From a virus (lineage: Duplodnaviria > Caudoviricetes), in the IMG/VR virus record IMGVR_UViG_3300037313_001148, positions 1-64,000 of that record: a stretch of DNA of 64,000 nucleotides. One strand, written 5' to 3'. Shown piece by piece: positions 3,697 through 26,567 of the stretch. Made by a program: the position numbers and the translations under genes. Positions within the stretch are counted from its first letter, which is position 1. The number at the start of each line of letters is the position of its first letter. Under the pieces are notes generated by a model, which worked only from the letters and a program-made list of their open reading frames with translations, did not search any database and was not told the DNA's origin.

Positions 3697-4614
3697 TCAG
3701 GCCGTTGCGGTTTCCGCTTCCTTCGCTTCTGCTTCAGTTCGTGAGAAATTGAGAATATATTCAGTCACTTGCGATGCTCGGTACGAAGCTTTAAGAATCC
3801 AGGAGTTATCTCGCTTCATGCGGTCAATCCACGATCCCAGGTAGTCAACCGAGTCGTCCCATCGCTTACCTGCCGGGATCTCGCATGCATCCGCGAGGTA
3901 ACATGCTGAGATTTCGGCAACCAATTCGCCAAAGAAGTAATCTTCATCCCCGAATCGCTTACCCATGACTGAGCCGATGGCATGGTCTGCCCAATGCGAC
4001 AACTCATGAAATAGTGTTGTGTAGTAGTTTTCCTCTGTGTCAAACTTGGACTTCCAAGGAATCGAGATCTCGCGACCTGACGTTGCGAAGTGGGCCGAGT
4101 TTCCGCCGTGACTGATCTTTGCTCCGGTTTTCTCGATCACTGCATCCGCTGTTGCGTAGTCAGCCACGCCGTCATTGGTTCCGTTGGGATCGGGCCGAAG
4201 ATGGTCCAAGGAATCCCCGTTGACTTGATCGATGCAAAACACTGGAAACATTCTCATAAGAGAATATCTATCCACTTCTTCGTTACCGTTGGAGTCCGTT
4301 TTCCCGGTGCGCTTGACGATCGGCTTATAGAGGGTAATCCAGGTTGCTTTCGCACCAGACTTGACCGATCCACCGTGCTCCTTCCATTGGTTGAAGGTTG
4401 CCCACCAACGACCCGACAGGCCACCGCACAAGGCCGTCAGATCCAACAGGATCGGGTTGATTCCCCGATAGGGCTTGCGTGTTACCAGCGAACTGGGATG
4501 ACCCATGTTCGGATCGAGGGACCAGGGTCGGACCCACGGCTTGACCCCCTTTTCCAGTGCCTCAAGGATCCGCGAGGTAATCAGGGTTCGCATCTGATCG
4601 CTTGACAGGGCCAT
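3697..4614 (-). CDS. ardC: ArdC-like ssDNA-binding antirestriction protein (DUF1738 + zincin-like domain)
   Basis: LEKGVKPWVRPW, YRGINPILL, WATFNQW, VFCIDQ, TLFHELSHW, EELVAE-like motifs. Confidence 0.9.
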   Translation of the reverse strand: MALSSDQMRTLITSRILEALEKGVKPWVRPWSLDPNMGHPSSLVTRKPYRGINPILLDLTALCGGLSGRWWATFNQWKEHGGSVKSGAKATWITLYKPIVKRTGKTDSNGNEEVDRYSLMRMFPVFCIDQVNGDSLDHLRPDPNGTNDGVADYATADAVIEKTGAKISHGGNSAHFATSGREISIPWKSKFDTEENYYTTLFHELSHWADHAIGSVMGKRFGDEDYFFGELVAEISACYLADACEIPAGKRWDDSVDYLGSWIDRMKRDNSWILKASYRASQVTEYILNFSRTEAEAKEAETATA

Positions 4615-4758: not shown

Positions 4759-5325
4759 TTATGGACTCTGGGGAGTGGTGGTAACATTCACGAGAATGCC
4801 GGAGAACACAGTCAAATCAAGATCTTCCCATGAGAACATCATTCGCATGATTGAATCAGAGGGCACGCAATGCGTGTCTTGAGTCAGGTCACTTAGGGCT
4901 TGGCAGCGATTTTTGACCCAAGTTCGGTTGCACATTTTTCCATTCAAATAAGGTCTGATCTCTTGAACCCAAATCGCCGAGATGGGTTCCCGGAATCTGA
5001 CAGTGTATCCATAATTAACCGCAATATCAACATACGGTTTCATATGGATATTCAGAACATTGCAGTTATCCACAATAACGTAATCGGTCTCGCGCTCCAT
5101 AGCGAACCGAGCATGACTGAAACACCATTCATGCGCGGCAGGGAGTCGGGAAGGATCGAAATTCTTGACGTAGGTATATCGATCCCAGCCGAAGTAATTG
5201 TCCGCAGAGCAAACCGCCACAGAGTAAGGGATTCCCCGTGAATCCAATTCGCGACAGATCGTCCGTGCTTCGGTGGACTTCCCCGATCCAGGCAGACCAC
5301 GCATGAGATAGAGAGTCTTTTTCAT
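4759..5325 (-). CDS. AAA_33 / polynucleotide-kinase-like P-loop kinase
   Basis: LYLMRGLPGSGKST Walker A, CSADNYF, VIVDNCN, HCVP..I.RM. Confidence 0.8.
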   Translation of the reverse strand: MKKTLYLMRGLPGSGKSTEARTICRELDSRGIPYSVAVCSADNYFGWDRYTYVKNFDPSRLPAAHEWCFSHARFAMERETDYVIVDNCNVLNIHMKPYVDIAVNYGYTVRFREPISAIWVQEIRPYLNGKMCNRTWVKNRCQALSDLTQDTHCVPSDSIMRMMFSWEDLDLTVFSGILVNVTTTPQSP

Positions 5326-5343
5326 CGCCATTGCCCTCAAAAA

Positions 5344-5555
5344 ATGCATGCACTCATTGAACATGCCGAACTACTGAACAAACGTTCACAACGTCCTAGA
5401 ATCGCTTATACGGCCCGCCACGCTATCGCCGGGCGGGAAGGTAGGATCTATCTACCACACTCCAGGAGATGCCACTACAAGCCAAAGAGAGCCGATTTTC
5501 GCCCGGCCCGGCCGGCAGCCCCAAGCCGGGCCAGGCGAAGTGCATCCATGCACTC
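5344..5555. repeat. intergenic module A, similar to 8919..9129
   Basis: atgcatgcactcattg; tcctagaatcgcttatacggcccg (22/24 identical to module B); ends in gtgcat-cc-atgcac. Confidence 0.65.
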
Positions 5556-6030
5556 AATCGTATATTACGCCAACGACTCGACCGCTAATCCCATTGGGAT
5601 CACGGAAGATCCGGTATCGGTGTCCAGCGCTCAATCCTGTATTAATGTTCCGAAAACTGTCCACATGTTCAACTGCACGTTGTGCCATTTCCAGGGACAC
5701 AATCTTGAAAGTTGTTGACCATGTTTTCCCATGATCTCCCGAGAATTGCAGCACATCCATTGCGATTGGGGAGAAAATGCTATTCAAGTATCTTTCCCGC
5801 CGCGTATCGGCGTCATGCCGTTCCATCATCTCGCAAAATTCCACGGCCATTTCCGCGCCCGACTCCAACGCCAGTTGCGCGGCAAATCGGGAGATCGCAT
5901 AGACGTTGTGAATAATGCCGAAATGAAACCATTTGACGATCTCACGCCGTTTGCTCGGGTCGGAAATCCAAGATTCGAGCATGATCGCCAGGTTGTCCAT
6001 CTTCAGTTGCGAGCTAATTGAAGTTGCCAT
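5554..6030 (-). CDS. hypothetical protein downstream of a solitary CRISPR repeat
   Basis: 158-aa ORF, ggag RBS; repeat ends 27 nt before the ATG. Confidence 0.6.
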   Translation of the reverse strand: MATSISSQLKMDNLAIMLESWISDPSKRREIVKWFHFGIIHNVYAISRFAAQLALESGAEMAVEFCEMMERHDADTRRERYLNSIFSPIAMDVLQFSGDHGKTWSTTFKIVSLEMAQRAVEHVDSFRNINTGLSAGHRYRIFRDPNGISGRVVGVIYD

Positions 6031-6057: not shown

Positions 6058-6088
6058 GTTTCAATCCACGTTCCGCGTGAGAGGCAAC
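6058..6088 (-). CRISPR. solitary degenerate type I-C CRISPR repeat
   Basis: minus strand GTTGCCTCTCACGCGGAACGTGGATTGAAAC (31 nt), similar to the 15384 repeat; no array. Confidence 0.75.
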
Positions 6089-6123
6089 GAAAAGAAGGCC
6101 GGCAAGCCCAATGCTTGCCGGCC
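6089..6123 (-). terminator. intrinsic terminator after the helicase
   Basis: perfect 11-bp stem ggccggcaagc/gcttgccggcc followed by TTCTTTT on the minus strand. Confidence 0.75.
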
Positions 6124-6158
6124 AGTCACATCATCGCTTGCCGGCCGGTTACATCATC
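6113..6158. repeat. 23-bp tandem duplication
   Basis: gcttgccggccagtcacatcatc / gcttgccggccggttacatcatc. Confidence 0.8.
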
Positions 6159-7842
6159 GTTGGGTCAATTGCTCTTCAGTCGTCCCGTTTCGCTTAGGCT
6201 TGGGTTCGACCCAGTAAAGTTCAGACGTTGCGCGGGTGATCGCCACGTAGATCAGGTTGCTCTCTTGCTTCCGTGCCCATGATTTCTTGGCCATCGGGTG
6301 CGGCAGCAACTCGGGATGAAGGATCCAAACCCGCTCCGACTCCAACCCCTTGACACGGTGGATTGTCGAGAGCACGACTCCGGTCGTCTTGTCTGAAAAG
6401 ATCGACAAAATCTTATTCTTGACGTCGTTGATATTTTCGCATCCTTCGGCCAGGACTTTGAGAGTATCGATCCGGTCGGCCAAACGCTGAGACTTGGCTT
6501 CTTGACCGGGCTTGGCCAGCTTGGCGATTTCGCGATTTCCCCAAGCGTCGATGCGCTCCCAAACGTCGCCGTTCTTTTGTTCCCGGCCGATCTTGTCGAG
6601 AAGAGAGCACAAATTCTTGCCGATGTCGCTTCCCCGGATCGTTGCTTTAACGCCGTTGCGGATCAGCGCCATACAATGCTCGGCCAGGGGAGCAGTCGTG
6701 CGACAGATCACCATATCCCCATCTTTGACGTTCTTCATGAAATCGTCTTCCTTGACGTTTTCCACGGTTCCGGGCTTTGCGGTCGGGGACGCTTGGATAT
6801 GGGGAACGATCTCCTGGGCCGCTTCGATGACCTTGGACGGGCAGCGCCAGCAAATCGAGAGAGGGAGTTCGACGGCCGAGAAGTCTCGCACCACGCTATC
6901 GATGGCTTCCGGATCGGCACCCCTAAATCCGTAGATAGCTTGGTTCCTGTCGCCGACGAACACCGCGCGCCCACCGTTTGCCGTCAGCCGCCGGATCATC
7001 TCGACTTGGATCGGGTTCAAGTCTTGACTCTCATCGATAAACACGTACTGATAGTACGTGGGGAACGCCATGTTCTTTGCGATCGGCAAGAGCAACTGAT
7101 CGTTGAAATCGATCATGGTTTCACAATTGAAACCGTCCTCGTATGTGCGAAGAAGCACGTCGAAAAACTTGTCTGTGCTAACTTCTTTGGGATCCGGGAT
7201 GTCGATGTCGTATCGATCGCAAAGTTCCATCACGTCAGCGCGGGTCGGCAGACCACGGATCGCGCCGTAGCCGAACCCCTTGAACAGCGCCACAAGCCGG
7301 CGGATCGGCGGGAGCATCAACGAAAACTCAATCTCATCCTTGCGATTGAGCATGTCATAACCCACGACGCCCTTGGCCACGAAATCGGTCTTGGAGTCGT
7401 TGAGGGTGGGCTTGACCGTCGCATTTTTGAAAACGATCCCCGCGCCGAGGGAGTTGAGGGTCTTCGCGGTGCAGTTCGGCAGAGAGATCCGCGCCGTCAG
7501 TTCTTCGGCGATCACTTTGTTGAATGCGAGCAAAAGGATGTTCGGCCGCTTGCCACCGTAGGTCAGGGCCGCGCAGGCGTCAATCAGTGTGGATGTCTTC
7601 CCCGACCCCGCCACGGCGTTGACGACCGCGTGGCCGCGTCCTTCGAGAAGCCATTGATAGATGTTCACTTGAAAAGACGTTGGGGCGCGGCCGGTCTTCT
7701 TCGTGAGCCGGTCAATCGTGTCAAGTACCAGCGTCGAGTGTTCCGTGGCCGTCTTGCGCTTGCGGTTTTTGGCGGGAGTGATCGCGACGGGGACCGGGCC
7801 AAAGTCGATGGAAGCGTCGGCGGTCTTGCGCTTGCGTGCCAT
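6154..7842 (-). CDS. UvrD/Rep-family SF1A helicase
   Basis: AVAGSGKT, FIDESQD, GDRNQAIYGFRGA, STIHRVKGLE, YVAITRA; start MARKRK at 7842. Confidence 0.93.
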   Translation of the reverse strand: MARKRKTADASIDFGPVPVAITPAKNRKRKTATEHSTLVLDTIDRLTKKTGRAPTSFQVNIYQWLLEGRGHAVVNAVAGSGKTSTLIDACAALTYGGKRPNILLLAFNKVIAEELTARISLPNCTAKTLNSLGAGIVFKNATVKPTLNDSKTDFVAKGVVGYDMLNRKDEIEFSLMLPPIRRLVALFKGFGYGAIRGLPTRADVMELCDRYDIDIPDPKEVSTDKFFDVLLRTYEDGFNCETMIDFNDQLLLPIAKNMAFPTYYQYVFIDESQDLNPIQVEMIRRLTANGGRAVFVGDRNQAIYGFRGADPEAIDSVVRDFSAVELPLSICWRCPSKVIEAAQEIVPHIQASPTAKPGTVENVKEDDFMKNVKDGDMVICRTTAPLAEHCMALIRNGVKATIRGSDIGKNLCSLLDKIGREQKNGDVWERIDAWGNREIAKLAKPGQEAKSQRLADRIDTLKVLAEGCENINDVKNKILSIFSDKTTGVVLSTIHRVKGLESERVWILHPELLPHPMAKKSWARKQESNLIYVAITRATSELYWVEPKPKRNGTTEEQLTQR

Positions 7843-7894
7843 AATCGAAACTCCAGTGAAAGCCGTGAGAGGCGAAAACCGGCGATAGCCGGAA

Positions 7895-7937
7895 GTCCCG
7901 TCCGGGGAATCGAACCCCAGCAACGCCAGTACGGGAC
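7895..7937 (-). repeat. tRNA-like T-loop minihelix element 1 (leader of the helicase gene)
   Basis: gtcccgt-10 nt-ctgggg TTCGATT ccccgg-acgggac. Confidence 0.85.
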
Positions 7938-7947
7938 AAATGGTCCA

Positions 7948-8175
7948 TCATCGCAGCCAAAACCGAACGTCGTGCACTCCAACAGCCCATTCAATCGAAT
8001 CGGACGTCTCGATTTTGATAGGCTCTCCCCCGTGCAGGCGGGCCGCTTGTGAGGAATCGTATCGGTCAAACCAAGTGGCATGACCCACGTTATTTACCCA
8101 TCCCATTGCACGGGAAAGATCCGATTCCAAGGTTAAATAGAGATTCGTGTCTCGGTCGTATACAACGAAATTCAT
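7948..8175 (-). CDS. hypothetical protein
   Basis: gggag RBS; downstream of element 2. Confidence 0.6.
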   Translation of the reverse strand: MNFVVYDRDTNLYLTLESDLSRAMGWVNNVGHATWFDRYDSSQAARLHGGEPIKIETSDSIEWAVGVHDVRFWLR

Positions 8176-8218
8176 CGCCACTCACTCCCAGAGTTCCGTT
8201 TGTCTAATCAACCCGGAA

Positions 8219-8259
8219 GTCCCGTCCGGGTTGCGAAACCCGGTAACGCAGTACGGGAC
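8219..8259 (-). repeat. tRNA-like minihelix element 2 (variant loop)
   Basis: gtcccgt-actgcgtta-ccggg tttcgcaa cccgg-acgggac. Confidence 0.8.
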
Positions 8260-8266
8260 AGGGCAA

Positions 8267-8563
8267 TCAGCGATCACCAGCAGAGCCAGCCCGATAGCCA
8301 TCGGCAACAACGAGGATCCGTCCATTCGAGTCCACTTCGCCAACGGATCCCTTGGTTGCCGTGTGGAATTCGATCGATCTCAAGACGACTTGCAGCAACG
8401 AGGGATGAACCCATCCCCGGATCGGCCGTTTCCAGTCTTCATGGTCTGCAACCATGTGAAACGCATGCCGCAATTCTTCGACCGAGAACCAATCAACGAT
8501 CTGTTTCCTGTCAATAGCTTGCTCTTCAAGCCGTGCTTTCCGGATAGCTTCGTCGGTAGACAT
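8267..8563 (-). CDS. hypothetical protein
   Basis: 98-aa ORF co-oriented with the block. Confidence 0.65.
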   Translation of the reverse strand: MSTDEAIRKARLEEQAIDRKQIVDWFSVEELRHAFHMVADHEDWKRPIRGWVHPSLLQVVLRSIEFHTATKGSVGEVDSNGRILVVADGYRAGSAGDR

Positions 8564-8587
8564 GGCAGTTTGCTCCGAATAGGCATG

Positions 8588-8812
8588 TCACTTGGACCGT
8601 CGTTGCAACTCGAATTCGGCACGCGCTCCGCATCGCGCCATAGCTTGCGACTGAGCGATGCTTGCTCGGTTATAGGGTCCGATGGCTTCGATTTTGTTTC
8701 GATCCATCAAACACAGAACCCGATCAAGTAAGATCAGGGCGTCAGACATGCGACCCGAATCGTAGTTCTCATGAGCTTTTTTCAGGATTGGTCTGATTTC
8801 GTCGGCAGTCAT
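8588..8812 (-). CDS. hypothetical protein
   Basis: 74-aa ORF downstream of the promoter, ggag RBS. Confidence 0.55.
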   Translation of the reverse strand: MTADEIRPILKKAHENYDSGRMSDALILLDRVLCLMDRNKIEAIGPYNRASIAQSQAMARCGARAEFELQRRSK

Positions 8813-8857
8813 GAGCGGTTTACTCCAAGGGTTCCGCGATCCGATAACCGAGACAGC

Positions 8858-8886
8858 ATCTTACCGGACGATATGCGGTCAAACAA
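8858..8886 (-). promoter_or_regulatory. sigma70-type promoter
   Basis: TTGTTT-17 nt-TAAGAT with TCCGG before the -10 box; ATCCTGAAAA upstream. Confidence 0.55.
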
Positions 8887-8918
8887 CGGGAATTTTCAGG
8901 ATTACTTTGATTTTCTCA

Positions 8919-9129
8919 ATGCATGCATTCATTGTGCCGTTTCTCTGGTCATTAGTACACCATCCTAGAACCGCGTATACGGCCCGTGGCGTGATCCGCT
9001 CCGTTCAAGGCCCGATCTATCACCCCGCCATCCCAGAGCCACGCCAGCAGCCAGCCAAGCGACCCCGGATCCGACCAGCGATTCCGGCCAGATCCGGGAG
9101 CAGGACGGTTGCCGCGAGTGCATGCAATC
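8919..9129. repeat. intergenic module B, similar to 5344..5555
   Basis: atgcatgcattcattg; tcctagaaccgcgtatacggcccg; agtgcatgca. Confidence 0.65.
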
Positions 9130-9463
9130 ATCCATTCGGGTCAGGATCAATTCCCAGCCCTTCACAATGAGGACATAGACACTTGATCTCGGTTTCCCCG
9201 ATTCCGACCAGGGTATCCGGAGCCTTCACTTCAACAAATCTATATCCTTCTTCGCAAAAGTGTTCCATCGCCCGATCTCGAAATCCGATCGGATCCCGTT
9301 TTTCGTCCCACTCCCACGACTCAAACTCCTCTGTGTGAACTTCGCTGCTCGAGCAGTCACAGCGCTTTCGAGATCCATCGTTATATGTTCTCATCCATGA
9401 ATTGTCACACGACGCCACTGCTTGCAGTCGGATCCGGATTCCCATTTGCGTTCTCTCAATCAA
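9128..9463 (-). CDS. hypothetical Cys-containing protein
   Basis: 111 aa, CxC and CLCPHC motifs; coupled to the upstream gene. Confidence 0.6.
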   Translation of the reverse strand: MIERTQMGIRIRLQAVASCDNSWMRTYNDGSRKRCDCSSSEVHTEEFESWEWDEKRDPIGFRDRAMEHFCEEGYRFVEVKAPDTLVGIGETEIKCLCPHCEGLGIDPDPNG

Positions 9464-9810
9464 GGGTCGATCAGTCGCTTCAATTCAGCGATACGCTTCC
9501 CGCAAGCGCGAAGTTTCCGGCCGTCGTGAGTCTTCGACGGGTTATCTTCGTTCAGCAGTTCGCCGAACTCTTCCATGATTGTATCAGCAATCTTCTTAGC
9601 GTGAGTCACTTTTTTCAGAAACGAGCAACAGCCAAGCCCAGTCTTTATATGAGTGATATTAAATCTTTCGGTGTTGGGTTCCCCGTGGAGACGTGGATGA
9701 GTGATCGCAAGCGGTCCTTTGATCCAGGCTTCCGCTTCGACCCATTCGACTTGTCTTTTCGAGGGTCCGCATGCAATCCAGATCGTGCCCTTCTTCCATC
9801 CTTTGCTCAT
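9460..9810 (-). CDS. hypothetical protein
   Basis: 116 aa, ggag RBS. Confidence 0.65.
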   Translation of the reverse strand: MSKGWKKGTIWIACGPSKRQVEWVEAEAWIKGPLAITHPRLHGEPNTERFNITHIKTGLGCCSFLKKVTHAKKIADTIMEEFGELLNEDNPSKTHDGRKLRACGKRIAELKRLIDP

Positions 9811-9811
9811 A

Positions 9812-10222
9812 TCAATCTCCGTTGAAGATTTTCAATCCGATCGCATTGAGCCGGGTCGGTTTCTCGGTCAATTGATCCGCGTACCATTGTTGCCAGAGAT
9901 GCCATGCGATCCCGTCGCCGTCCGCAATTGCTTCCCGAACGTACTTCACACCATCGGCCGTCAGGGGGTTTTCGAGCCAAGCTCCGATTCGGCAACCGCC
10001 AAGTCCGTCAATCGCGTTCACACATTCGGATCCGCATCCGCAATGATCGGGAGAGTCCGCTTCCCCGGCATCTGGATACCATCCATTTTCGATGATATCT
10101 TTATACTCCTCCTTTTGTTCGGGGGACATCATTTTGGGGAACGTGTCGCGGATCGAAGGGATGATCTTCTCGCGAGCACAGTCTTCACAGTAGAGCGAAC
10201 AATCATAAACGAAGATTCTCAT
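9812..10222 (-). CDS. hypothetical protein
   Basis: 136 aa, LYCEDC and HCGCGSEC motifs. Confidence 0.65.
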   Translation of the reverse strand: MRIFVYDCSLYCEDCAREKIIPSIRDTFPKMMSPEQKEEYKDIIENGWYPDAGEADSPDHCGCGSECVNAIDGLGGCRIGAWLENPLTADGVKYVREAIADGDGIAWHLWQQWYADQLTEKPTRLNAIGLKIFNGD

Positions 10223-10225
10223 GTG

Positions 10226-10495
10226 TTAGTCTTTTGGTTCGATTTTGTGGATGTAGAAACGGAATTTGGGTTCCAATTCCGGAACGTCACAGTAAGACCA
10301 TTTCATGTATCCCAGGGCGTCCGCGTAATCGGTCCAGAATTGGACTTGGAAGTCCTTTCCTGTGCAATTCAAGCCCTCAAGTTTGAGTCCGCAGTCTCGG
10401 GCCGCTCGTTCTGCGTTGCCGAGGGAATTAAAAAGTCCGATTGGTTTGATAGAAAAATCGCCGCACCCGATCGGCCGATAATAGACAGCGAACAT
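10226..10495 (-). CDS. hypothetical protein
   Basis: ATG 10495 after aaggag; the longer TTG start runs through repeat copy 2. Confidence 0.6.
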   Translation of the reverse strand: MFAVYYRPIGCGDFSIKPIGLFNSLGNAERAARDCGLKLEGLNCTGKDFQVQFWTDYADALGYMKWSYCDVPELEPKFRFYIHKIEPKD

Positions 10496-10546
10496 ATGAA
10501 AATTCTCCTTCGTCAAACGGTAGTCGGATATGACGCAGAGACCAGC

Positions 10547-10597
10547 CGACACTCCCCTTTCTCCGTCGTCCCGTTTGACCGGGCGAAGCCCGGTCAA
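10547..10597 (+). repeat. dispersed motif+GNA hairpin element, copy 2 (intergenic)
   Basis: cgacactcccctttctccgtcgtcc + ttgaccgggc-GAA-gcccggtcaa. Confidence 0.9.
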
Positions 10598-10599
10598 CG

Positions 10600-10797
10600 T
10601 CAAATCTTACGCGCGGAACGTTCTTGAATGATCTGACGAAGTGTCATCGTCAGATGGGGAAAAATCGCGTACAACGTTGGCCAGTCAAAACCGTAAGGCT
10701 GATACCCCATGCCGTTAGTAATACGACGCCAGACCTGAAAGTGAAACCGGATCAATTGGTCATCAGAAAGAGACCTGATGTATTCATGGACTTTCAT
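10600..10797 (-). CDS. hypothetical protein
   Basis: 65 aa, aaggaa RBS. Confidence 0.6.
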   Translation of the reverse strand: MKVHEYIRSLSDDQLIRFHFQVWRRITNGMGYQPYGFDWPTLYAIFPHLTMTLRQIIQERSARKI

Positions 10798-10985
10798 GCC
10801 GATTTCCTTTCGTATCGAACATTGACGGTCCCGACCGTATACCCCTTGACTCTGGACTCCCGCGCGAATCGTTCGACGATCGCTCGCGATTCAGACCCGA
10901 AGACTTCCAATACCTCCGGGTCTTCCGGTCGGCGGTAGCCGACCCAATAGAACTCGGTTGCTTGAATGAGAAAAACAGCATCCAT
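10794..10985 (-). CDS. hypothetical protein
   Basis: ATG 10985 after aaaggag. Confidence 0.6.
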   Translation of the reverse strand: MDAVFLIQATEFYWVGYRRPEDPEVLEVFGSESRAIVERFARESRVKGYTVGTVNVRYERKSA

Positions 10986-11019
10986 GTTTGTTTCTCCTTT
11001 GGTTTGCCCAGCACTTCGA

Positions 11020-11529
11020 CTAGAGCGAAGGATCGGTAACAGTGTGTTCACGCAGACGCAGAAACCGCGCGGCATCTGACGTTCTCAGGAGACTCTGGCC
11101 ATGAATGCCAAACCCTTCGACGTGTGCCCGGTAAATCAGTTCGACCCAGGAAATCAGCTTTCCGTCAAGATTGTATTTCTTGATGGTTCCATTCGGGTTT
11201 GTGGGCGTTGCGACACTCGGCGCCGTTTGGGTCTTTTGCTCCGAGGTTATCGTTGGCTCTGTTGTGAGTGGCGCGGGTTCCGTCGCGGTCGGTTTCACTC
11301 CGGGGGGACGACCGCGTTTGCCGGGGACCGTCTTTGATGTCAAGCTGAATTCCTTGTATCGCAACGCGATCACGGCAGCAGTGATGCCATTAGACTTCGC
11401 CCACTTATTCGAGGCGACGGCATCAAAAAGTTTCGACAGATTCTTGTATGCTCCTTTGTTTTTCTTTTCGGCCAAGTCAATCTCGGCTTGGAGTTCCGTA
11501 GCGGACACTTGGACTTTCGCTCTTGCCAT
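11020..11529 (-). CDS. hypothetical protein with an AT-hook-like PGKRGRPP motif, paralog of 504..1019
   Basis: 169 aa, ggag RBS. Confidence 0.65.
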   Translation of the reverse strand: MARAKVQVSATELQAEIDLAEKKNKGAYKNLSKLFDAVASNKWAKSNGITAAVIALRYKEFSLTSKTVPGKRGRPPGVKPTATEPAPLTTEPTITSEQKTQTAPSVATPTNPNGTIKKYNLDGKLISWVELIYRAHVEGFGIHGQSLLRTSDAARFLRLREHTVTDPSL

Positions 11530-11559
11530 GACCGGATTCTCCGTTGGATGTAAATGTGT

Positions 11560-12210
11560 TTATTTCTTGACTCTGCTTCTCAGGAAACCGGGAGCTTCGT
11601 CGCCATCCTTGACCCATTTCGCCAGAGAATCAAGCGCCCAATCTTTGAGGTTGCTGTCAATCTCGAGGAAATCTTCCCAGCAAAAATCACGTTTGAAGAG
11701 AATCAGTCCTGCAATCATAAGTTTTTCGATCTCATCTCCTGATTCTCTTACAAGAATTTCACTGATAAGATCATGAGATTGCCAATTCACAACGATATTT
11801 TTCAGGTTGGCGGAACGAAGGTCAGTGAAACTCAGGTCAGTGGAACCCAAGTTAGTGAAACTCAGATCAGCGGAGCGAAGGTCAGCGTAACGAAGGCTAG
11901 CATAGCGCAGGTCAGCGTAACGCAGACTAGCGTAGTACAGGTCAGCGTGGCGAAGGTTAGCGCGGCGCAAACTAGCATAGCACAGATCAGCGGAGCGCAG
12001 ACTAGCGTGGTACAGGTCAGCGTGGCGAAGGTTAGCGCGGCGCAAAATAGCATAACGCAGGTCAACATAGCACAGACTAGCGTAGTACAAATCAGCGTAG
12101 TGAAGGTTAGCGGAGTGCAGGTCAGCGTAACGAAGGTCAGCGTGTTGAAGGTCATCGGAATCAACAATTTTGATTACTGTTCCATCGAAACGTTTTTTGA
12201 TTTCAATCAT
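11560..12210 (-). CDS. pentapeptide repeat protein
   Basis: about 20 A[D/N/S]Lxx repeats; start MIEIKK at 12210. Confidence 0.92.
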   Translation of the reverse strand: MIEIKKRFDGTVIKIVDSDDLQHADLRYADLHSANLHYADLYYASLCYVDLRYAILRRANLRHADLYHASLRSADLCYASLRRANLRHADLYYASLRYADLRYASLRYADLRSADLSFTNLGSTDLSFTDLRSANLKNIVVNWQSHDLISEILVRESGDEIEKLMIAGLILFKRDFCWEDFLEIDSNLKDWALDSLAKWVKDGDEAPGFLRSRVKK

Positions 12211-12253
12211 GGAAATTCTCCTATAAGTAAACCAGAAACGCATCATCGAGAAA

Positions 12254-12296
12254 GTCCCGTCCGGGGAATCGAACCCCAGTAACACCAGTACGGGAC
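12254..12296 (-). repeat. tRNA-like T-loop minihelix element 3
   Basis: 48 bp (12250-12297) identical to 13441-13488. Confidence 0.9.
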
Positions 12297-12307
12297 ATAT
12301 TTTCTTA

Positions 12308-12520
12308 TTACGATTTGGCGATATAAATCATCCCATTCGCACGCGCGGCCTTACGGATCTTGCGGCGGTCGGACTTCGGCAGCACGGCGAACAACTCGGC
12401 GGGGGGAGTGACACGGCCCGAAGATCCCAGCTTCAAGCCCGTGGGCGTGGCCAGGATGTTCTTGCCGTTGATCGACACGTTGAGATTGACGGATCGGACG
12501 CGGCGGGCAGAAGCAATCAT
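12308..12520 (-). CDS. small basic hypothetical protein
   Basis: ATG 12520 after ggag. Confidence 0.55.
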   Translation of the reverse strand: MIASARRVRSVNLNVSINGKNILATPTGLKLGSSGRVTPPAELFAVLPKSDRRKIRKAARANGMIYIAKS

Positions 12521-12572
12521 GGGGTGCTCCGTGGACAGGACAAAAAGGTTGGCCAGGAAACACGAACGGCAG

Positions 12573-12848
12573 TCAGGCAATTCGCTCGATACGTTCCTCT
12601 GGTGGTGGCAGGGGTGGATATCCGAGGGATGCGATTGCTTCAGTAGCACCCGGATCCGTATCGTCGATCCGATAGTACCAAGGGCTATTAGTCGGCGGGA
12701 TCGAAAAGATCTCTCCCGCGCCGTAGCGTGCTTCACTGTCAACTGTGTACGTACCTGTCGGTGTCCCAAGGCACAATTCCACAATCACGCTATCCAAAAC
12801 TCGATAGCGGCCCGGTTTCAAAACCATGACGATTTTCTCCCAATTCAA
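12573..12848 (-). CDS. hypothetical protein
   Basis: 91 aa, coupled to the upstream gene. Confidence 0.55.
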   Translation of the reverse strand: MNWEKIVMVLKPGRYRVLDSVIVELCLGTPTGTYTVDSEARYGAGEIFSIPPTNSPWYYRIDDTDPGATEAIASLGYPPLPPPEERIERIA

Positions 12849-13393
12849 GCAATCGGATCAATCTTATATGTGCATCCCTTACCGATGAACAGCGATGGCT
12901 GTTCAAGCATGCCGCAATACTTTTCCCATTGACTCGGTTCATCGCTCGAGGACTTCAGACGCCCCCAGCAATGCACGCCGAATTCATCAACGAATGCGAA
13001 TCCGTACCATCCTCCGGAAGTTGCAACTTCGGTCCCAGTAGCGTTTACTGCTGTTCGCCAAAGATAGGCGATCCGCCGGCCAGGACAGAAAGCGGCGTCA
13101 ACAGGTTGCGTTTCCACCCGGAAATAACGGGTTTTCCGGCCGGTGTTCGGACTTGTAATCGCAATCAGGGCATCGTGTCGAGTCACGTCGTAGGTGAGCG
13201 GTGAAATCACTGGTGCGGCCGACTTGGTTCGGCGCCGAACAGGACGAAGATCGGCGCCCTTGACGGCACCAGTCTTGCGAGTCGGCCGGCGGATCGGTTC
13301 GGCCGACGCGGCGGTCGGCGGTGGCGTTGGATCCACCGTCTTGCGGGCACGGGTTGGCTTGGCGGGAGATTCCGCCGTCTTCTTTCGGGCCAT
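12845..13393 (-). CDS. hypothetical protein with a basic Pro/Ala N-terminus
   Basis: start MARKKT after ctggagtg. Confidence 0.6.
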   Translation of the reverse strand: MARKKTAESPAKPTRARKTVDPTPPPTAASAEPIRRPTRKTGAVKGADLRPVRRRTKSAAPVISPLTYDVTRHDALIAITSPNTGRKTRYFRVETQPVDAAFCPGRRIAYLWRTAVNATGTEVATSGGWYGFAFVDEFGVHCWGRLKSSSDEPSQWEKYCGMLEQPSLFIGKGCTYKIDPIA

Positions 13394-13444
13394 GCGAGGG
13401 CACTCCAGGGGGCCGTGAAAGGCAAAGATCGGCACCAGCCGAAA

Positions 13445-13487
13445 GTCCCGTCCGGGGAATCGAACCCCAGTAACACCAGTACGGGAC
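13445..13487 (-). repeat. tRNA-like T-loop minihelix element 4
   Basis: identical to element 3. Confidence 0.9.
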
Positions 13488-13504: not shown

Positions 13505-13732
13505 TTACCAGCGTGCCCATGATGGAAGTTGATTGTAAATTCTCTCCATTTCTTTCTCACACAAAACGGCATGGCCCATGTCGCCAGTCAGACGGCTTCG
13601 CATCGACCGTTTCTTGAACTGAGCATATCTCGACAATGACAGAAAAACAACTTCTAAGGCCGCGTAATCCGTGGGATCGTTAGAGAAATCGTCCAGGTTC
13701 GGCACGTCAAAGTATTCAGTCTTGCTTGCCAT
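13505..13732 (-). CDS. hypothetical protein, first gene of the leftward arm
   Basis: ATG 13732 after gggag. Confidence 0.6.
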   Translation of the reverse strand: MASKTEYFDVPNLDDFSNDPTDYAALEVVFLSLSRYAQFKKRSMRSRLTGDMGHAVLCEKEMERIYNQLPSWARW

Positions 13733-13776
13733 CGTCGTTCGCTCCCAAGGTTCCGTGTGTCGGTCATTCACCCACC

Positions 13777-13805
13777 ATAATACCGGACACTGTAAGGTAG
13801 ATCAA
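13777..13805 (-). promoter_or_regulatory. sigma70-type promoter of the leftward arm
   Basis: TTGATC-17 nt-TATTAT with TCCGG before the -10 box; ATCCTGAAAA upstream. Confidence 0.7.
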
Positions 13806-13947
13806 CCGCGGATTTTCAGGATTACCCGGTTTTCTCAATGCATGCATGCACTCGGCTGGTTATACTGGCCATTAGTATACTATGCTGGCAGGTTTTCGGG
13901 CCGCATAGTAGGATAGAGCTTTCAACCCCATTTCAGGAGTTTTCGGC

Positions 13948-15315
13948 ATGGCCATTCTTCGTGCTCTGAACGAATTCACAAAAGAGTCAGTTGTACTTGC
14001 TCTTGAACCTTCACGTCAATGTATCTGCAACTGTACATATTGCTTTGCCTCACTTAATAGCAAATCTCAATACGAGAATAAGAAAAAGGACTTCCGCGAT
14101 CCATCTACATTTGAATTTACTCTAGAGAAAGCATATAGCCACAATTACAATCCCGAAGACTTCCTTCAGTGGGCTGTCCGAAGCCGCCTCGTCCTCGGAT
14201 ACGCCAACACGGTCGAGCCGTTCCAGGATATCGAGCAATCCAAATCTATCCTCAAGGCTTGCGATCATCACTCTATCCCTCTATTCATTCAAACTAAAGG
14301 AATTAACTTCTTTGATGTGTGGTCGCACCTGAAACCGTTCCACGACAATGCGGCCCTGTTCGTCTCGTTTCCGACGATGGACGATCGCGTTCTCCGTCGT
14401 TTCGAGATTGGTACGCCCCTCTCGCTTGACCGGCTTCGCGTGATCGAAACGGCTGCTAATGCCGGATTTCATGTTATTCTTGCACTCTCGCCTTATCATG
14501 AAAAATGGTGTTCAGATCCAGAACAATTTATTCGTATCGCCAAAGATGCTGGTGTTGGCTCCGTGTTCTTCGATCGGCTTCACCTGAATATCAGGCAGCG
14601 CAAGGCAGCCGGCGATAAGGTCATGGTAGACCTGGCTCACAAGACGGAGCATCCCAACTGGCCACCCCTGGCCCTCGAGCATTACGAGCACATCTATTTT
14701 CTGTGCGAAGAACTCGGCCTACCGATCTTCGCTAATGGATCCATCCCGATCCATTTCGGCTGGCCGAACACCCTGGCTACAATCTCTCCAGCCGGCATCT
14801 ATACACGGGGACTGCAATGGACCTATCACGACGGCGACCTGTTCCATAACCTCGATTTCAGTTTCTACGATGATGAATTTGGAGATAAGTTTGATTCACT
14901 GGACGATCCGGCCGACTATGACGGGTCCGATTCGGTTCTGGTTCGCTGGCCTGATGTCATTTCGATCATGGAATCACCAACGCCAATCAATCAGGAGTTC
15001 TCATATTCATCACTGTCTGACTTGATCTCTGTCAAGACCCTGCCGAAGATCTGGATTGATATGCTCAAGCCTCGCGCCCGCCTCTCGGAATACTATCGCG
15101 CGATTTGGAATAATCGATCTCATTCATTTGTATGGCATCATCCATTCATTAAAGTTGCCCTGAAACCTGACGGTACTCCGTGGACTGACGAAGAAGGAAA
15201 TATCATGTCTTTATACGATCCTTGGTTCCAGGTGGACGGCCCTAAAGAGCGTGTCGTGGAAACGGTTGAAGATTTTCGTGTTCTTGAGCCTGAACACGAC
15301 ACCGCTTCGCCTTAA
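13948..15315 (+). CDS. radical SAM protein (spore photoproduct lyase-like)
   Basis: CICNCTYC (CxxxCxxC), EPFQ, IQTKG, FEIGTP..RL motifs; caggag RBS. Confidence 0.8.
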   Translation: MAILRALNEFTKESVVLALEPSRQCICNCTYCFASLNSKSQYENKKKDFRDPSTFEFTLEKAYSHNYNPEDFLQWAVRSRLVLGYANTVEPFQDIEQSKSILKACDHHSIPLFIQTKGINFFDVWSHLKPFHDNAALFVSFPTMDDRVLRRFEIGTPLSLDRLRVIETAANAGFHVILALSPYHEKWCSDPEQFIRIAKDAGVGSVFFDRLHLNIRQRKAAGDKVMVDLAHKTEHPNWPPLALEHYEHIYFLCEELGLPIFANGSIPIHFGWPNTLATISPAGIYTRGLQWTYHDGDLFHNLDFSFYDDEFGDKFDSLDDPADYDGSDSVLVRWPDVISIMESPTPINQEFSYSSLSDLISVKTLPKIWIDMLKPRARLSEYYRAIWNNRSHSFVWHHPFIKVALKPDGTPWTDEEGNIMSLYDPWFQVDGPKERVVETVEDFRVLEPEHDTASP

Positions 15316-15383: not shown

Positions 15384-15415
15384 GTCGCCTCCCACGCGGG
15401 GGCGTGGATTGAAAC
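15384..15415 (+). CRISPR. solitary type I-C CRISPR repeat
   Basis: GTCGCCTCCCACGCGGGGGCGTGGATTGAAAC, 32 nt with 7-bp stem and ATTGAAAC end; no second repeat nearby. Confidence 0.88.
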
Positions 15416-18356: not shown

Positions 18357-18522
18357 GGCTCCGAGATGGGATACCTGGATAGCCCAATCCTAAATGAAAG
18401 AATGCCGATGCGAGTCCAAAGGATCGTGGCACGGCCGATCACGCAAAGGAACAACATTCTGTCACATGGAGGCTCCCGCCTGCGAAAGCGGGAGCGTGCG
18501 GGTTCAAATCCCGCCGGAGTCG
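18357..18522 (+). tRNA. expanded tRNA-Asp(GTC)-like gene with insertions (166 nt)
   Basis: acceptor ggctccg/cggagtc, G73, T arm gcggg-TTCAAAT-cccgc, CTGTCAC loop at 18458-18464; anticodon stem not canonical. Confidence 0.6.
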
Positions 18523-24839: not shown

Positions 24840-24946
24840 CTGGCGTTGGTCTGAAGTGACCCTTGTTAGATTCCTCAGCATAACAGGGCGAGCGTGGCTA
24901 AGACGTGGCGAAAGCCGAGACGAAGGTTCGACTCCTTCACGCCAGA
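24840..24946 (+). tRNA. atypical tRNA-like gene (107 nt, 12-nt anticodon loop)
   Basis: acceptor ctggcgt/acgccag, T arm gaagg-TTCGACT-ccttc, stem ccttgtta/taacaggg. Confidence 0.55.
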
Positions 24947-25243
24947 CTTCAGCATAGAAACATATCATGGGAAGAAATGATCGTCTGCCGCTTTCTAGAA
25001 TTTCTCCGACGCCTCCACCCCCGCCGCCGAAGCCGCCAACCCATTATTCTTATAGCGGATCGGTATCAAGAGATAACAATAAGTTGCAAGACGTATCCCG
25101 AGAAGAAATGCCGTCTCGGGGACCGCTCTCTTGGCTTTGGTGGCTCTAGATACTTTCTTGAAGGCCATAGCCTTATGAACCTCATCGAACCTGCCATCTT
25201 CAAGGTTGTGCCGTAGCAACCTACGTGTCATAAAGGGAAACCT

Positions 25244-25334
25244 GAGCCGCTGGCGCAACTGGCAGACGCCACCGCAAGAGCGGTGTCCCAAAACTGGGAA
25301 GTAAGAGATCCGGGTTCAAATCCCGGTCGGCTCA
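25244..25334 (+). tRNA. atypical tRNA-like gene (Leu-type D arm, no canonical anticodon loop)
   Basis: gagccg/cggctc acceptor, GCGCAACTGGCAGACGC D arm, ccggg-TTCAAAT-cccgg T arm; two 4-nt-loop hairpins between them. Confidence 0.55.
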
Positions 25335-25676
25335 GATTGATTGTTTCCTTGAAAGCCCTGGCCCTCCCTGATACCATGTTGGCCACGCGGCTCGTAGCCG
25401 CTTCCGCCGCCGGGAGGGCAGCCGAAATGATAAACAGAAATGTTGATCTTTTTGTGCCGCTGTAAGTTTTCTCCCGGCGGTTTTTATGCTCATACCTTTT
25501 CCTTCCCGCAAGCCCACCTCCGCCAATCCCTGCGATCGGTGCGGCGATCCTGCCGGCTACATTCCTAGGCACCGCAAGACCCCTGTGCGGATTCGTACCA
25601 ACTGGAAGGAGGAAGGACAGATCAAAGTGGGTCACGTATGCCAAAAATGTTATTCATATATAGAAAGGCATAAGCA

Positions 25677-26567
25677 ATGAATACTAAATGGCATAACAAG
25701 ATTGGACGATACGGACAAGCCACGCATATTGATTTTGATTCATACATGAACGAGATTGGCCCTCTTCTCGATCATGTCTTGATCCCTCATTATGAAGAAA
25801 AATCCCTGATCTCCGAAGCTAAGCGTGAAATCGTCCGCTTTATCGATTCGGGGATCTCCTACTTCCCCTGTCGCGACCGAATCATCCTTTGTAACCAGAG
25901 GCTCATTTTCTCTGAAGTCCTCAAGATTCATAATCCGTTCCCCAATTTCGAGGATTACATGCAGGCTGGTACTTTCGGCCTGGTTGAAGCAATCAAAAAA
26001 TTCGACACGTCAAAACCATTCAAATTCTCGACATATGCAACTCACTGGATTCGTAGATATTTAAAAGATGAGCGAGTCAAGTCAAATACAGGGAAGCCGG
26101 TTCTAACCAACGCCGCTGTTACCATCTGGTATCACTATTCAAGGGTGCAACGGAACCAGCCTGCCCCTCTCTCTTATGCCGAAGTGTTCGCTATCATCTC
26201 ACAGCTTCCACAAATGAAGTTTCTTTCATTCGACACATTCTGTGATACGATTCGGACAATGGAGGCGATCTCTTACTCCCTAGATTATGACAGTGACAGT
26301 GGAATTGATATCCTTTCCGATCTTCCTGAATACTACGATGACGAGTTTCAGCCTGTTCGGGACGCTCTTTCGACTCTGGACCCGAGAACCCGCCGCGTCA
26401 TTTCCGCTTTCTTCGGCCTGGACTGCCAGAAGCTTTCGCTTGAGGATATCGGCCTCGAGATCGGCGTAACCCGCGAGCGGGTCCGTCAGATCAAGGAAAG
26501 GGGCGTCAAAGAAATTCGTCAATATATCTCCAGAAAACCAAAGCTCCGTTACACTGGAGTCGCCTGA
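25677..26567 (+). CDS. phage-encoded sigma-70 family factor
   Basis: region 2 DYMQAGTFGLVEAIKKFD..FSTYATHWIR; region 4 SLEDIGLEIGVTRERVRQI. Confidence 0.9.
   Translation: MNTKWHNKIGRYGQATHIDFDSYMNEIGPLLDHVLIPHYEEKSLISEAKREIVRFIDSGISYFPCRDRIILCNQRLIFSEVLKIHNPFPNFEDYMQAGTFGLVEAIKKFDTSKPFKFSTYATHWIRRYLKDERVKSNTGKPVLTNAAVTIWYHYSRVQRNQPAPLSYAEVFAIISQLPQMKFLSFDTFCDTIRTMEAISYSLDYDSDSGIDILSDLPEYYDDEFQPVRDALSTLDPRTRRVISAFFGLDCQKLSLEDIGLEIGVTRERVRQIKERGVKEIRQYISRKPKLRYTGVA

Follow-up and report, generated by a model that had tools for sequence, protein, structure and literature searches.

The window analysed here covers positions 1 to 64,000 of a linear IMG/VR virus record of 90,669 bp (IMGVR_UViG_3300037313_001148), whose completeness is estimated at 78%. 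Genes between position 1 and about 13.9 kb run leftward, those in the remainder rightward. Four short intergenic elements, numbered 1 to 4 below, lie within one 6-kb stretch of the leftward arm and in that arm only, each resembling the acceptor and T-arm half of a transfer RNA (tRNA) and each standing between the stop codon of one leftward gene and the start of the next. They form a repeat family with a common fold, tRNA-Glu ancestry, intercistronic position and orientation, and they may serve as cleavage sites for host tRNA-maturation enzymes. Against cultured phages the large terminase reaches 32% identity at most and therefore gives no clue to host or taxonomy.

The elements are 43 bases long (element 2: 8219-8259) and all four are co-oriented on the minus strand, as listed in Table 1, with no further copies across the full 90,669-bp record. 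A pattern consisting of the two 7-nucleotide (nt) outer arms separated by a gap of 20-40 nt occurs at exactly 4 sites, against 0.01 expected from shuffled sequence, and a stricter pattern that includes the T-loop occurs at 3 sites against 0.00 expected, so that the four sites reported in a first-pass annotation of this DNA are borne out. The same annotation had described two copies as identical over 48 bp; these are elements 3 and 4, which share 48 identical nucleotides from the T at -1 through +4. Element 1 departs from element 4 by two substitutions, both in the connector between the arms, and element 2 is changed in the connector and in the inner arm. The acceptor stem is identical in 4/4 copies, the changes in element 2 affecting none of its 14 positions as against 8 of the 29 elsewhere. 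The borders of the elements are sharp, and despite unrelated flanking sequences the T at -1, the T at the discriminator position and the T at +74 are invariant.

At the level of predicted structure, the minimum-free-energy fold of every copy, in both 60-nt and about 100-nt contexts, places a 7-bp outer stem directly on an inner arm, with an unpaired connector of 9-10 nt on the 5' side (10 nt in element 4). In elements 1, 3 and 4 the inner arm has 6 bp, a G-C closing pair and a canonical 7-nt T-loop; in element 2 it consists of 7 bp and a 4-nt loop, the T-loop being lost and the acceptor stem unchanged. The TTCGATT loop originally described, with a variant in element 2, holds for elements 1, 3 and 4, and element 2 has no T-loop. 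Fold energies range from -20 to -26 kcal/mol, and folding-energy z-scores from -0.9 to -2.3 are not exceptional, so the significance of the elements rests on their repetition and not on folding energies. All of the pair cells over the four copies (52/52) hold standard pairs. In the arm of element 2, a double change from G-C to U-A and a further change from U·G to C-G retain pairing, and the U·G pair of elements 1, 3 and 4 would be an A/C mismatch if read on the plus strand. This strand-specific wobble pair, together with an outer-arm spacing of 29 nt in elements 1, 3 and 4 and 27 nt in element 2, speaks for folding as RNA, on the transcribed minus strand, rather than for a DNA site, and the pair-preserving changes in element 2 point the same way.

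The origin of the elements was addressed with a scan for a 15-nt T-arm core together with the 7-nt 3' acceptor strand, covering about 185,000 prokaryotic species, each represented by a single genome, as well as IMG/VR, which returned 33 prokaryotic loci and 1 locus in IMG/VR. ARAGORN calls tRNA-Glu at 28 of these 34 matches, most of the six without such a call can be seen to be incomplete tRNA-Glu genes of a kind found where elements have integrated, at their ends, and the 5' acceptor strand of the matched tRNA-Glu genes is the same 7-mer that the elements carry. Global alignment of element 4 to tRNA-Glu requires a single gap of about 30 nt, which begins at position 8 and takes in most of the anticodon loop. 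What the connector then matches is the end of that loop, followed by the 3' strand of the anticodon stem and the 4-nt variable loop. The remaining differences are few: U replaces A at the first T-stem position, an extra G pairs with the last variable-loop base and lengthens the stack to 13 bp, the discriminator is U in place of G, and CCA is not encoded. Judged by this alignment, each element is a bacterial tRNA-Glu(UUC) gene that has lost the D arm and the greater part of the anticodon arm by deletion, the product then having been copied, and the likeness to tRNA is to be read as homology, beyond loose similarity. The acceptor/T-arm resemblance first noticed thus has a specific source in tRNA-Glu, and the reported absence of D and anticodon arms is confirmed, only 9-10 nt standing between the acceptor strand and the T-arm.

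Several other assignments were tried and rejected. None of the four is a canonical tRNA gene by ARAGORN, even with relaxed settings, and the Rfam tRNA model does not match any of them at E-values up to 5; across Rfam as a whole nothing reaches gathering thresholds, and E-values up to 5 yield chance-level matches only. A tRNA-like domain of transfer-messenger RNA (tmRNA) is contradicted by the lack of any ARAGORN tmRNA call, by a 3-70 pair that is C-G and not G·U, and by the mere 10 nt between the two halves. The C4 antisense RNA and its a1-b1 model (RF03163) reach chance level only, c4-a1b1 scoring 18 bits against a gathering threshold of 46.7 (E = 1.8). A tRNA fragment derived from attP or from integration does not fit either, the 5' acceptor strand being present in four copies and the record, at 78% completeness, having no PF00589 match. 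Among the loci returned by the ancestry scan, four (L179, L185, L187 and L198, from Acetobacteraceae, Magnetococcales and Puniceicoccales assemblies) are tRNA-Glu 3' fragments that reach from the anticodon stem to CCA and look like duplications left by elements integrated into tRNA-Glu genes.

With respect to gene context, each element lies 7-17 nt past the stop codon of the upstream leftward gene and 43-52 nt before an ATG preceded by a GGAG-type ribosome-binding site. The distance to the start codon claimed in the first-pass annotation (about 44-53 nt) agrees with the gaps measured to the ATG (Table 1), and its placement of the elements in 5' leaders is correct in that they stand upstream of start codons and incomplete in that they are also intercistronic. 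A promoter-leader cassette of about 130 nt occurs twice on the minus strand (13720-13900 and 8800-8980), with a partial copy near 5336-5417; its copies share a sigma-70-like promoter match and the leader down to the ribosome-binding site, and the first genes of the two leftward operons show no paralogy to each other. From these features the elements look like internal punctuation of two leftward operons, two per operon.

Table 1. Coordinates of the elements and of associated features in the window (aa, amino acids; ORF, open reading frame; SF1, superfamily 1)
Feature	Position	Strand	Remarks
Element 1	7895-7937	-	10 nt past stop of 75-aa ORF; 52 nt before helicase ATG
Element 2	8219-8259	-	65.1 bits (covariance model); 7 nt past stop of 98-aa ORF; 43 nt before ATG of 75-aa ORF
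Element 3	12254-12296	-	11 nt past stop of 70-aa ORF; 43 nt before ATG of pentapeptide-repeat protein
Element 4	13445-13487	-	78.5 bits (covariance model); 17 nt past stop of 75-aa ORF; 51 nt before ATG of 182-aa ORF
UvrD-like SF1 DNA helicase	6154-7842	-	downstream of element 1
75-aa protein			downstream of element 2; its stop precedes element 1
Pentapeptide-repeat protein	11560-12210	-	downstream of element 3
182-aa protein, basic N-terminus, no family match	12845-13393	-	downstream of element 4
Sigma-70-like promoter match	13777-13805	-	in promoter-leader cassette; proposed start of operon 1 (elements 4 and 3)
Promoter-leader cassette, second copy	8892-8919	-	proposed start of operon 2 (elements 2 and 1)
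Strong intrinsic terminator, 11-bp stem, T-rich tail	6097-6123	-	past helicase gene; proposed end of operon 2
Companion 5-bp hairpin, U-rich tail	7879-7892	-	2 nt past element 1
Companion 5-bp hairpin, U-rich tail	13429-13442	-	2 nt past element 4; weakly terminator-like in terminator scan
Larger tRNA-like gene 1	18357-18522	+	
Larger tRNA-like gene 2	24840-24945	+	
Larger tRNA-like gene 3	25243-25335	+	Rfam tRNA model 23.9 bits, gathering threshold 29
Solitary type I-C-like CRISPR repeat	6058-6088	-	just past helicase terminator; 27 nt before ATG of ORF 5554-6030
Solitary type I-C-like CRISPR repeat	15384-15415	+	weak Rfam CRISPR-DR9 match, 21 bits against 45

The reading that we favour, at a probability of roughly 40%, is that the elements act as punctuation resembling mitochondrial t-elements and are cut by host ribonuclease (RNase) P and RNase Z inside early polycistronic RNAs. 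In this scheme the elements would be transcribed within two leftward polycistronic early messages, and the host tRNA-maturation enzymes would recognise the top half, in which the acceptor stem is stacked on the T-arm. RNase P would cut at the 5' base of the acceptor stem, and RNase Z, whose cut would be possible because no CCA is encoded, past the unpaired U that follows the acceptor stem. The operon message would thereby be split into pieces with a stability or translation of their own, with the release of a small RNA, tRNA-like and about 44 nt long. Host enzymes would have to act, since the record has no match for an RNase Z-type beta-lactamase fold, a CCA-adding enzyme or RtcB; it likewise has none for an integrase.

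What recommends cleavage by these enzymes is a combination of position, sequence and fold. All four elements follow a stop codon and precede the ribosome-binding site of the next gene, within promoter-to-terminator units and in the orientation of the genes. For bacterial RNase P a U just ahead of the cut is favourable; for RNase Z, so is the absence of CCA together with a U past the discriminator. Programmed processing or stabilisation of mRNA had already been suggested on first inspection, and operon position, orientation, the U at -1, the missing CCA and the U·G pair all fit that suggestion; transcription through the elements, their cleavage and any effect on expression are the steps that we infer. 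Bacterial RNase P efficiently cleaves model substrates that consist of a helix of acceptor stem, T-stem and T-loop (PMC11143913), and t-elements, which are found by their T-loop motif, coincide with mapped mRNA ends in plant mitochondria (Forner et al. 2007, PMC1920247). In a census of the record, that T-loop motif is present in three of the four elements, and the structural feature of t-elements, an acceptor-like stem with a T-loop arm, occurs in elements 1, 3 and 4, element 2 having the stems only. Glutamylation of the released RNA would be unlikely, given that the major glutamate identity elements are located in the anticodon loop and the D arm (PMC9976931), both of which are missing.

A number of observations weigh against cleavage of this kind. 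Element 2 has no T-loop and a 14-bp stack, yet its acceptor stem is perfect, and in the other copies the coaxial stack measures 13 bp where 12 is canonical. The 3' CCA, which helps bacterial RNase P, is absent. Covariation is statistically weak, amounting to one compensatory pair in four sequences, which 120 of 500 shuffles match. The invariance of the acceptor sequence, which neither RNase P nor RNase Z requires, hints at sequence-specific recognition or at recent copying. In addition, the small terminator-like hairpin that follows elements 1 and 4 suits other models as well, and the 2.3 Mb around distant helicase homologues described below hold no similar element.

Among the alternatives, the elements could be passive intercistronic hairpins of the repetitive extragenic palindrome (REP) type, whose 13-14-bp stem would block 3' exonucleases or partly terminate transcription so that cistron levels differ, the tRNA ancestry being incidental. 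This explanation is unlikely, although the folds are stable (-20 to -26 kcal/mol) and stand directly past stop codons, element 2 retains a strong stem without a T-loop, and a small U-tailed hairpin is conserved after elements 1 and 4. The two companion hairpins are homologous, with an outer pair that is C-G in one and U-A in the other. The elements themselves, however, are not among the 15 terminator-like sites called in the terminator scan and have only 2-3 U (T in the DNA) in their tails, so that the candidate of an intrinsic terminator was rejected, and a canonical T-loop, a 10-nt unpaired connector and an invariant acceptor sequence would all be superfluous for a plain stabiliser.

Quite unlikely, in our estimate, is that the 48-nt unit is a selfish or module-boundary repeat with little or no RNA function, one that recombination would spread, carrying a leader and gene start along, and that would mark the junctions of exchangeable cassettes in the manner of the promoter-stem-loop cassettes of T4-type phages. 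In favour of such spread is the homology between elements 1 and 4, which extends from the base before the element through the companion hairpin and takes in the first ~10 codons of the downstream genes; these two genes are otherwise unrelated, their proteins showing no paralogy beyond those codons. What travels is therefore a leader cassette headed by the element. Sharp copy borders with unrelated flanks, the confinement of all copies to one 6-kb stretch and the similar reuse of the ~130-nt promoter-leader cassette agree with this. Set against them, no target-site duplication or terminal repeats are visible, the record encodes no recombinase of the tyrosine integrase family, and the pairing-preserving changes of element 2, along with the strand-specific wobble, argue for selection on an RNA fold. 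Recombination between identical copies, raised as a possibility in the first-pass annotation, finds no support so far: the four DNA sequencing runs compared show no deletion or joint between copies, but in short low-depth contigs that carry no weight on recombination or variation.

A further proposal concerns the RNAs that processing would release. The full 90-kb record holds no canonical tRNA according to ARAGORN; it does hold three larger tRNA-like genes (Table 1) with sound acceptor stems and canonical T-arms, whose cores carry extra hairpins and lack both a normal 7-nt anticodon loop and an encoded CCA. The solitary CRISPR repeat beyond the helicase terminator is placed before a start codon in a manner equivalent to that of the minihelices. 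On this proposal the excised and CCA-tailed minihelices would be decoys that soak up a host reader of the acceptor end or of the tRNA-Glu acceptor stem, for example a defence toxin, which we regard as decidedly improbable. The acceptor stem has stayed the same where the arm has drifted, the four copies sit in early operons, the same arm has genes of anti-defence type (ArdC-like and pentapeptide-repeat) besides the type I-C-like repeat in its equivalent position, and the three further genes have no normal anticodon arm. These points are purely circumstantial, the processing step, itself predicted, would be needed first, and glutamyl-tRNA synthetase is an unlikely target, with glutamate identity elements in the anticodon loop and D arm (PMC9976931). 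Extended to the whole set, the idea would have a phage without a working tRNA carry a set of anticodon-less mimics, four minihelices and three larger RNAs, as decoys that host RNase P, RNase Z and CCA-adding enzyme would mature into abundant small RNAs, for which we see little probability; such a set would, with equally slender odds, be the tRNA counterpart of RNA anti-CRISPRs, apparently carried in the same arm as the solitary type I-C repeats.

Control of transcription, by a nut- or put-like antitermination signal or an operator that allows readthrough of the weak terminators after elements 1 and 4, is very improbable: element 4 does stand behind the first small gene after the promoter and ahead of a weak terminator-like hairpin, and the genes downstream of elements 1 and 4 do start with arginine/lysine-rich peptides, but elements 2 and 3 have no terminator-like hairpin after them and the tRNA-Glu ancestry is left unexplained. 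The DNA operator was rejected, and the binding site for a phage regulator suggested earlier is disfavoured if it is taken as a DNA site, given that arm spacing differs (27 against 29 nt) and the wobble pair is strand-specific, both of which oppose a dimeric operator. The arginine/lysine-rich N-terminal peptides of the helicase (7740-7842) and of the 182-aa protein (13290-13393), both on the minus strand, are homologous, and the basic motif of the helicase recurs about 70 nt further in. Since helicase homologues align only from about residue 35-55, the basic peptide is an added N-terminal tail.

Among known systems, the closest kind is the t-element, or tRNA punctuation more broadly, with cleavage in this phage being a prediction. 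Both t-elements and the phage elements are non-canonical tRNA-like folds with a T-arm motif beside coding regions; t-elements are embedded in longer transcripts, as the phage elements would be, and have been proposed or shown to generate mRNA ends by directing cleavage by RNase P and RNase Z (PMC1920247). T-elements differ in being organellar; the phage elements are much smaller at 43 nt, have neither D nor anticodon arm, and represent one deletion derivative of tRNA-Glu in four near-identical copies. The synthetic RNase P minihelices of McClain, Guerrier-Takada and Altman, as reviewed in PMC11143913, likewise have coaxial acceptor and T stems with a T-loop, the top half alone being cleavable; unlike them, the phage elements have a 10-nt bulge-like connector, a 13-bp stack and no 3' CCA. 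The same review gives the P1/P7 C4 antisense RNA and polycistronic operon mRNAs as precedents for RNase P substrates that are not tRNAs, but these are not derivatives of tRNA genes, and they have no sequence or model relationship to the elements. The incomplete tRNA genes that integrating elements leave behind (van der Gulik et al. 2023, PMC9897764) are similarly tRNA-derived fragments in mobile DNA; they are 3' parts only, in single copies at element ends, whereas the phage elements keep both acceptor strands around an internal deletion, occur in four copies and are accompanied by no integrase match.

A related RNA was found in a phage-like element of a metagenome-assembled bacterium (L197, 375-449 on the plus strand), which carries a tRNA-Glu-like RNA without an anticodon arm. 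It shares with the elements three derived characters that tRNA-Glu lacks, the A at position 8, the U at position 49 and the presence of two nucleotides, and not one, between the T-stem and the acceptor strand. An early-type gene block, which encodes an Ant-like anti-repressor, a D5-like regulator and a 1352-aa primase, has its first ORF 30 nt downstream of this RNA. The RNA differs in keeping the D-arm and a 21-nt linker and in being single-copy in its genome, and the carrier element is unrelated to the phage at the protein level. By its shared derived positions, this RNA is best read as a related intermediate.

Relatives were sought by several further routes. An exact-pattern scan of IMG/VR for the two arms gave 10 matches, all rejected as chance, lying inside coding sequence and having no inner arm. 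A single-protein scan by way of the adjacent helicase found nothing; helicase homologues at 55-65% identity exist (P0002-P0007). The loci scanned for elements were those around distant helicase homologues, at most 45% identical, among the matches listed. Over about 2.2-2.3 Mb of such loci, a structural scanner gave 8 minihelix-like matches against 4 in reversed controls, none of them similar to the elements, and the covariance model recognised only its own four copies (65-78 bits) and the weak partial match in L197, with none in the 2.3 Mb. Literature searches turned up no account of such intergenic tRNA minihelices from phages.

The points of interest are the clean deletion ancestry from tRNA-Glu, the cassette structure, and the co-occurrence of anticodon-less tRNA mimics with solitary CRISPR repeats. 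If host tRNA-maturation enzymes do cut the elements, the phage would be using mitochondrial-style tRNA punctuation on its early messages, and such a route of regulation would rely on essential enzymes that the host could hardly lose. The ancestry through a single deletion shows a route by which such signals may originate and gives a simple rule for searching for them. Being short, portable and modular, the element could also serve for cutting synthetic operon transcripts. T-elements have reportedly been put to comparable use in Haloferax. Should the RNAs be decoys instead, they would represent a new class of anti-defence RNA.

The sequencing runs listed as carrying the stretch are 11 DNA runs from soil and rhizosphere and 0 RNA runs; the four DNA runs that were compared have identical sequence, in short low-depth contigs broken at repeats. 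Other genes of the leftward arm encode an ArdC-like anti-restriction protein with a zincin peptidase domain (3697-4614, minus strand) and an AAA_33 P-loop kinase (4759-5364, minus strand). Among the rightward genes, one has a weak radical-SAM match (13948-15315, plus strand) and another encodes a sigma-70-family factor with regions 2 and 4 (25677-26567, plus strand). The pentapeptide-repeat gene contains about 20 tandem 15-nt DNA repeats (11800-12170, minus strand) and could be prone to length variation.

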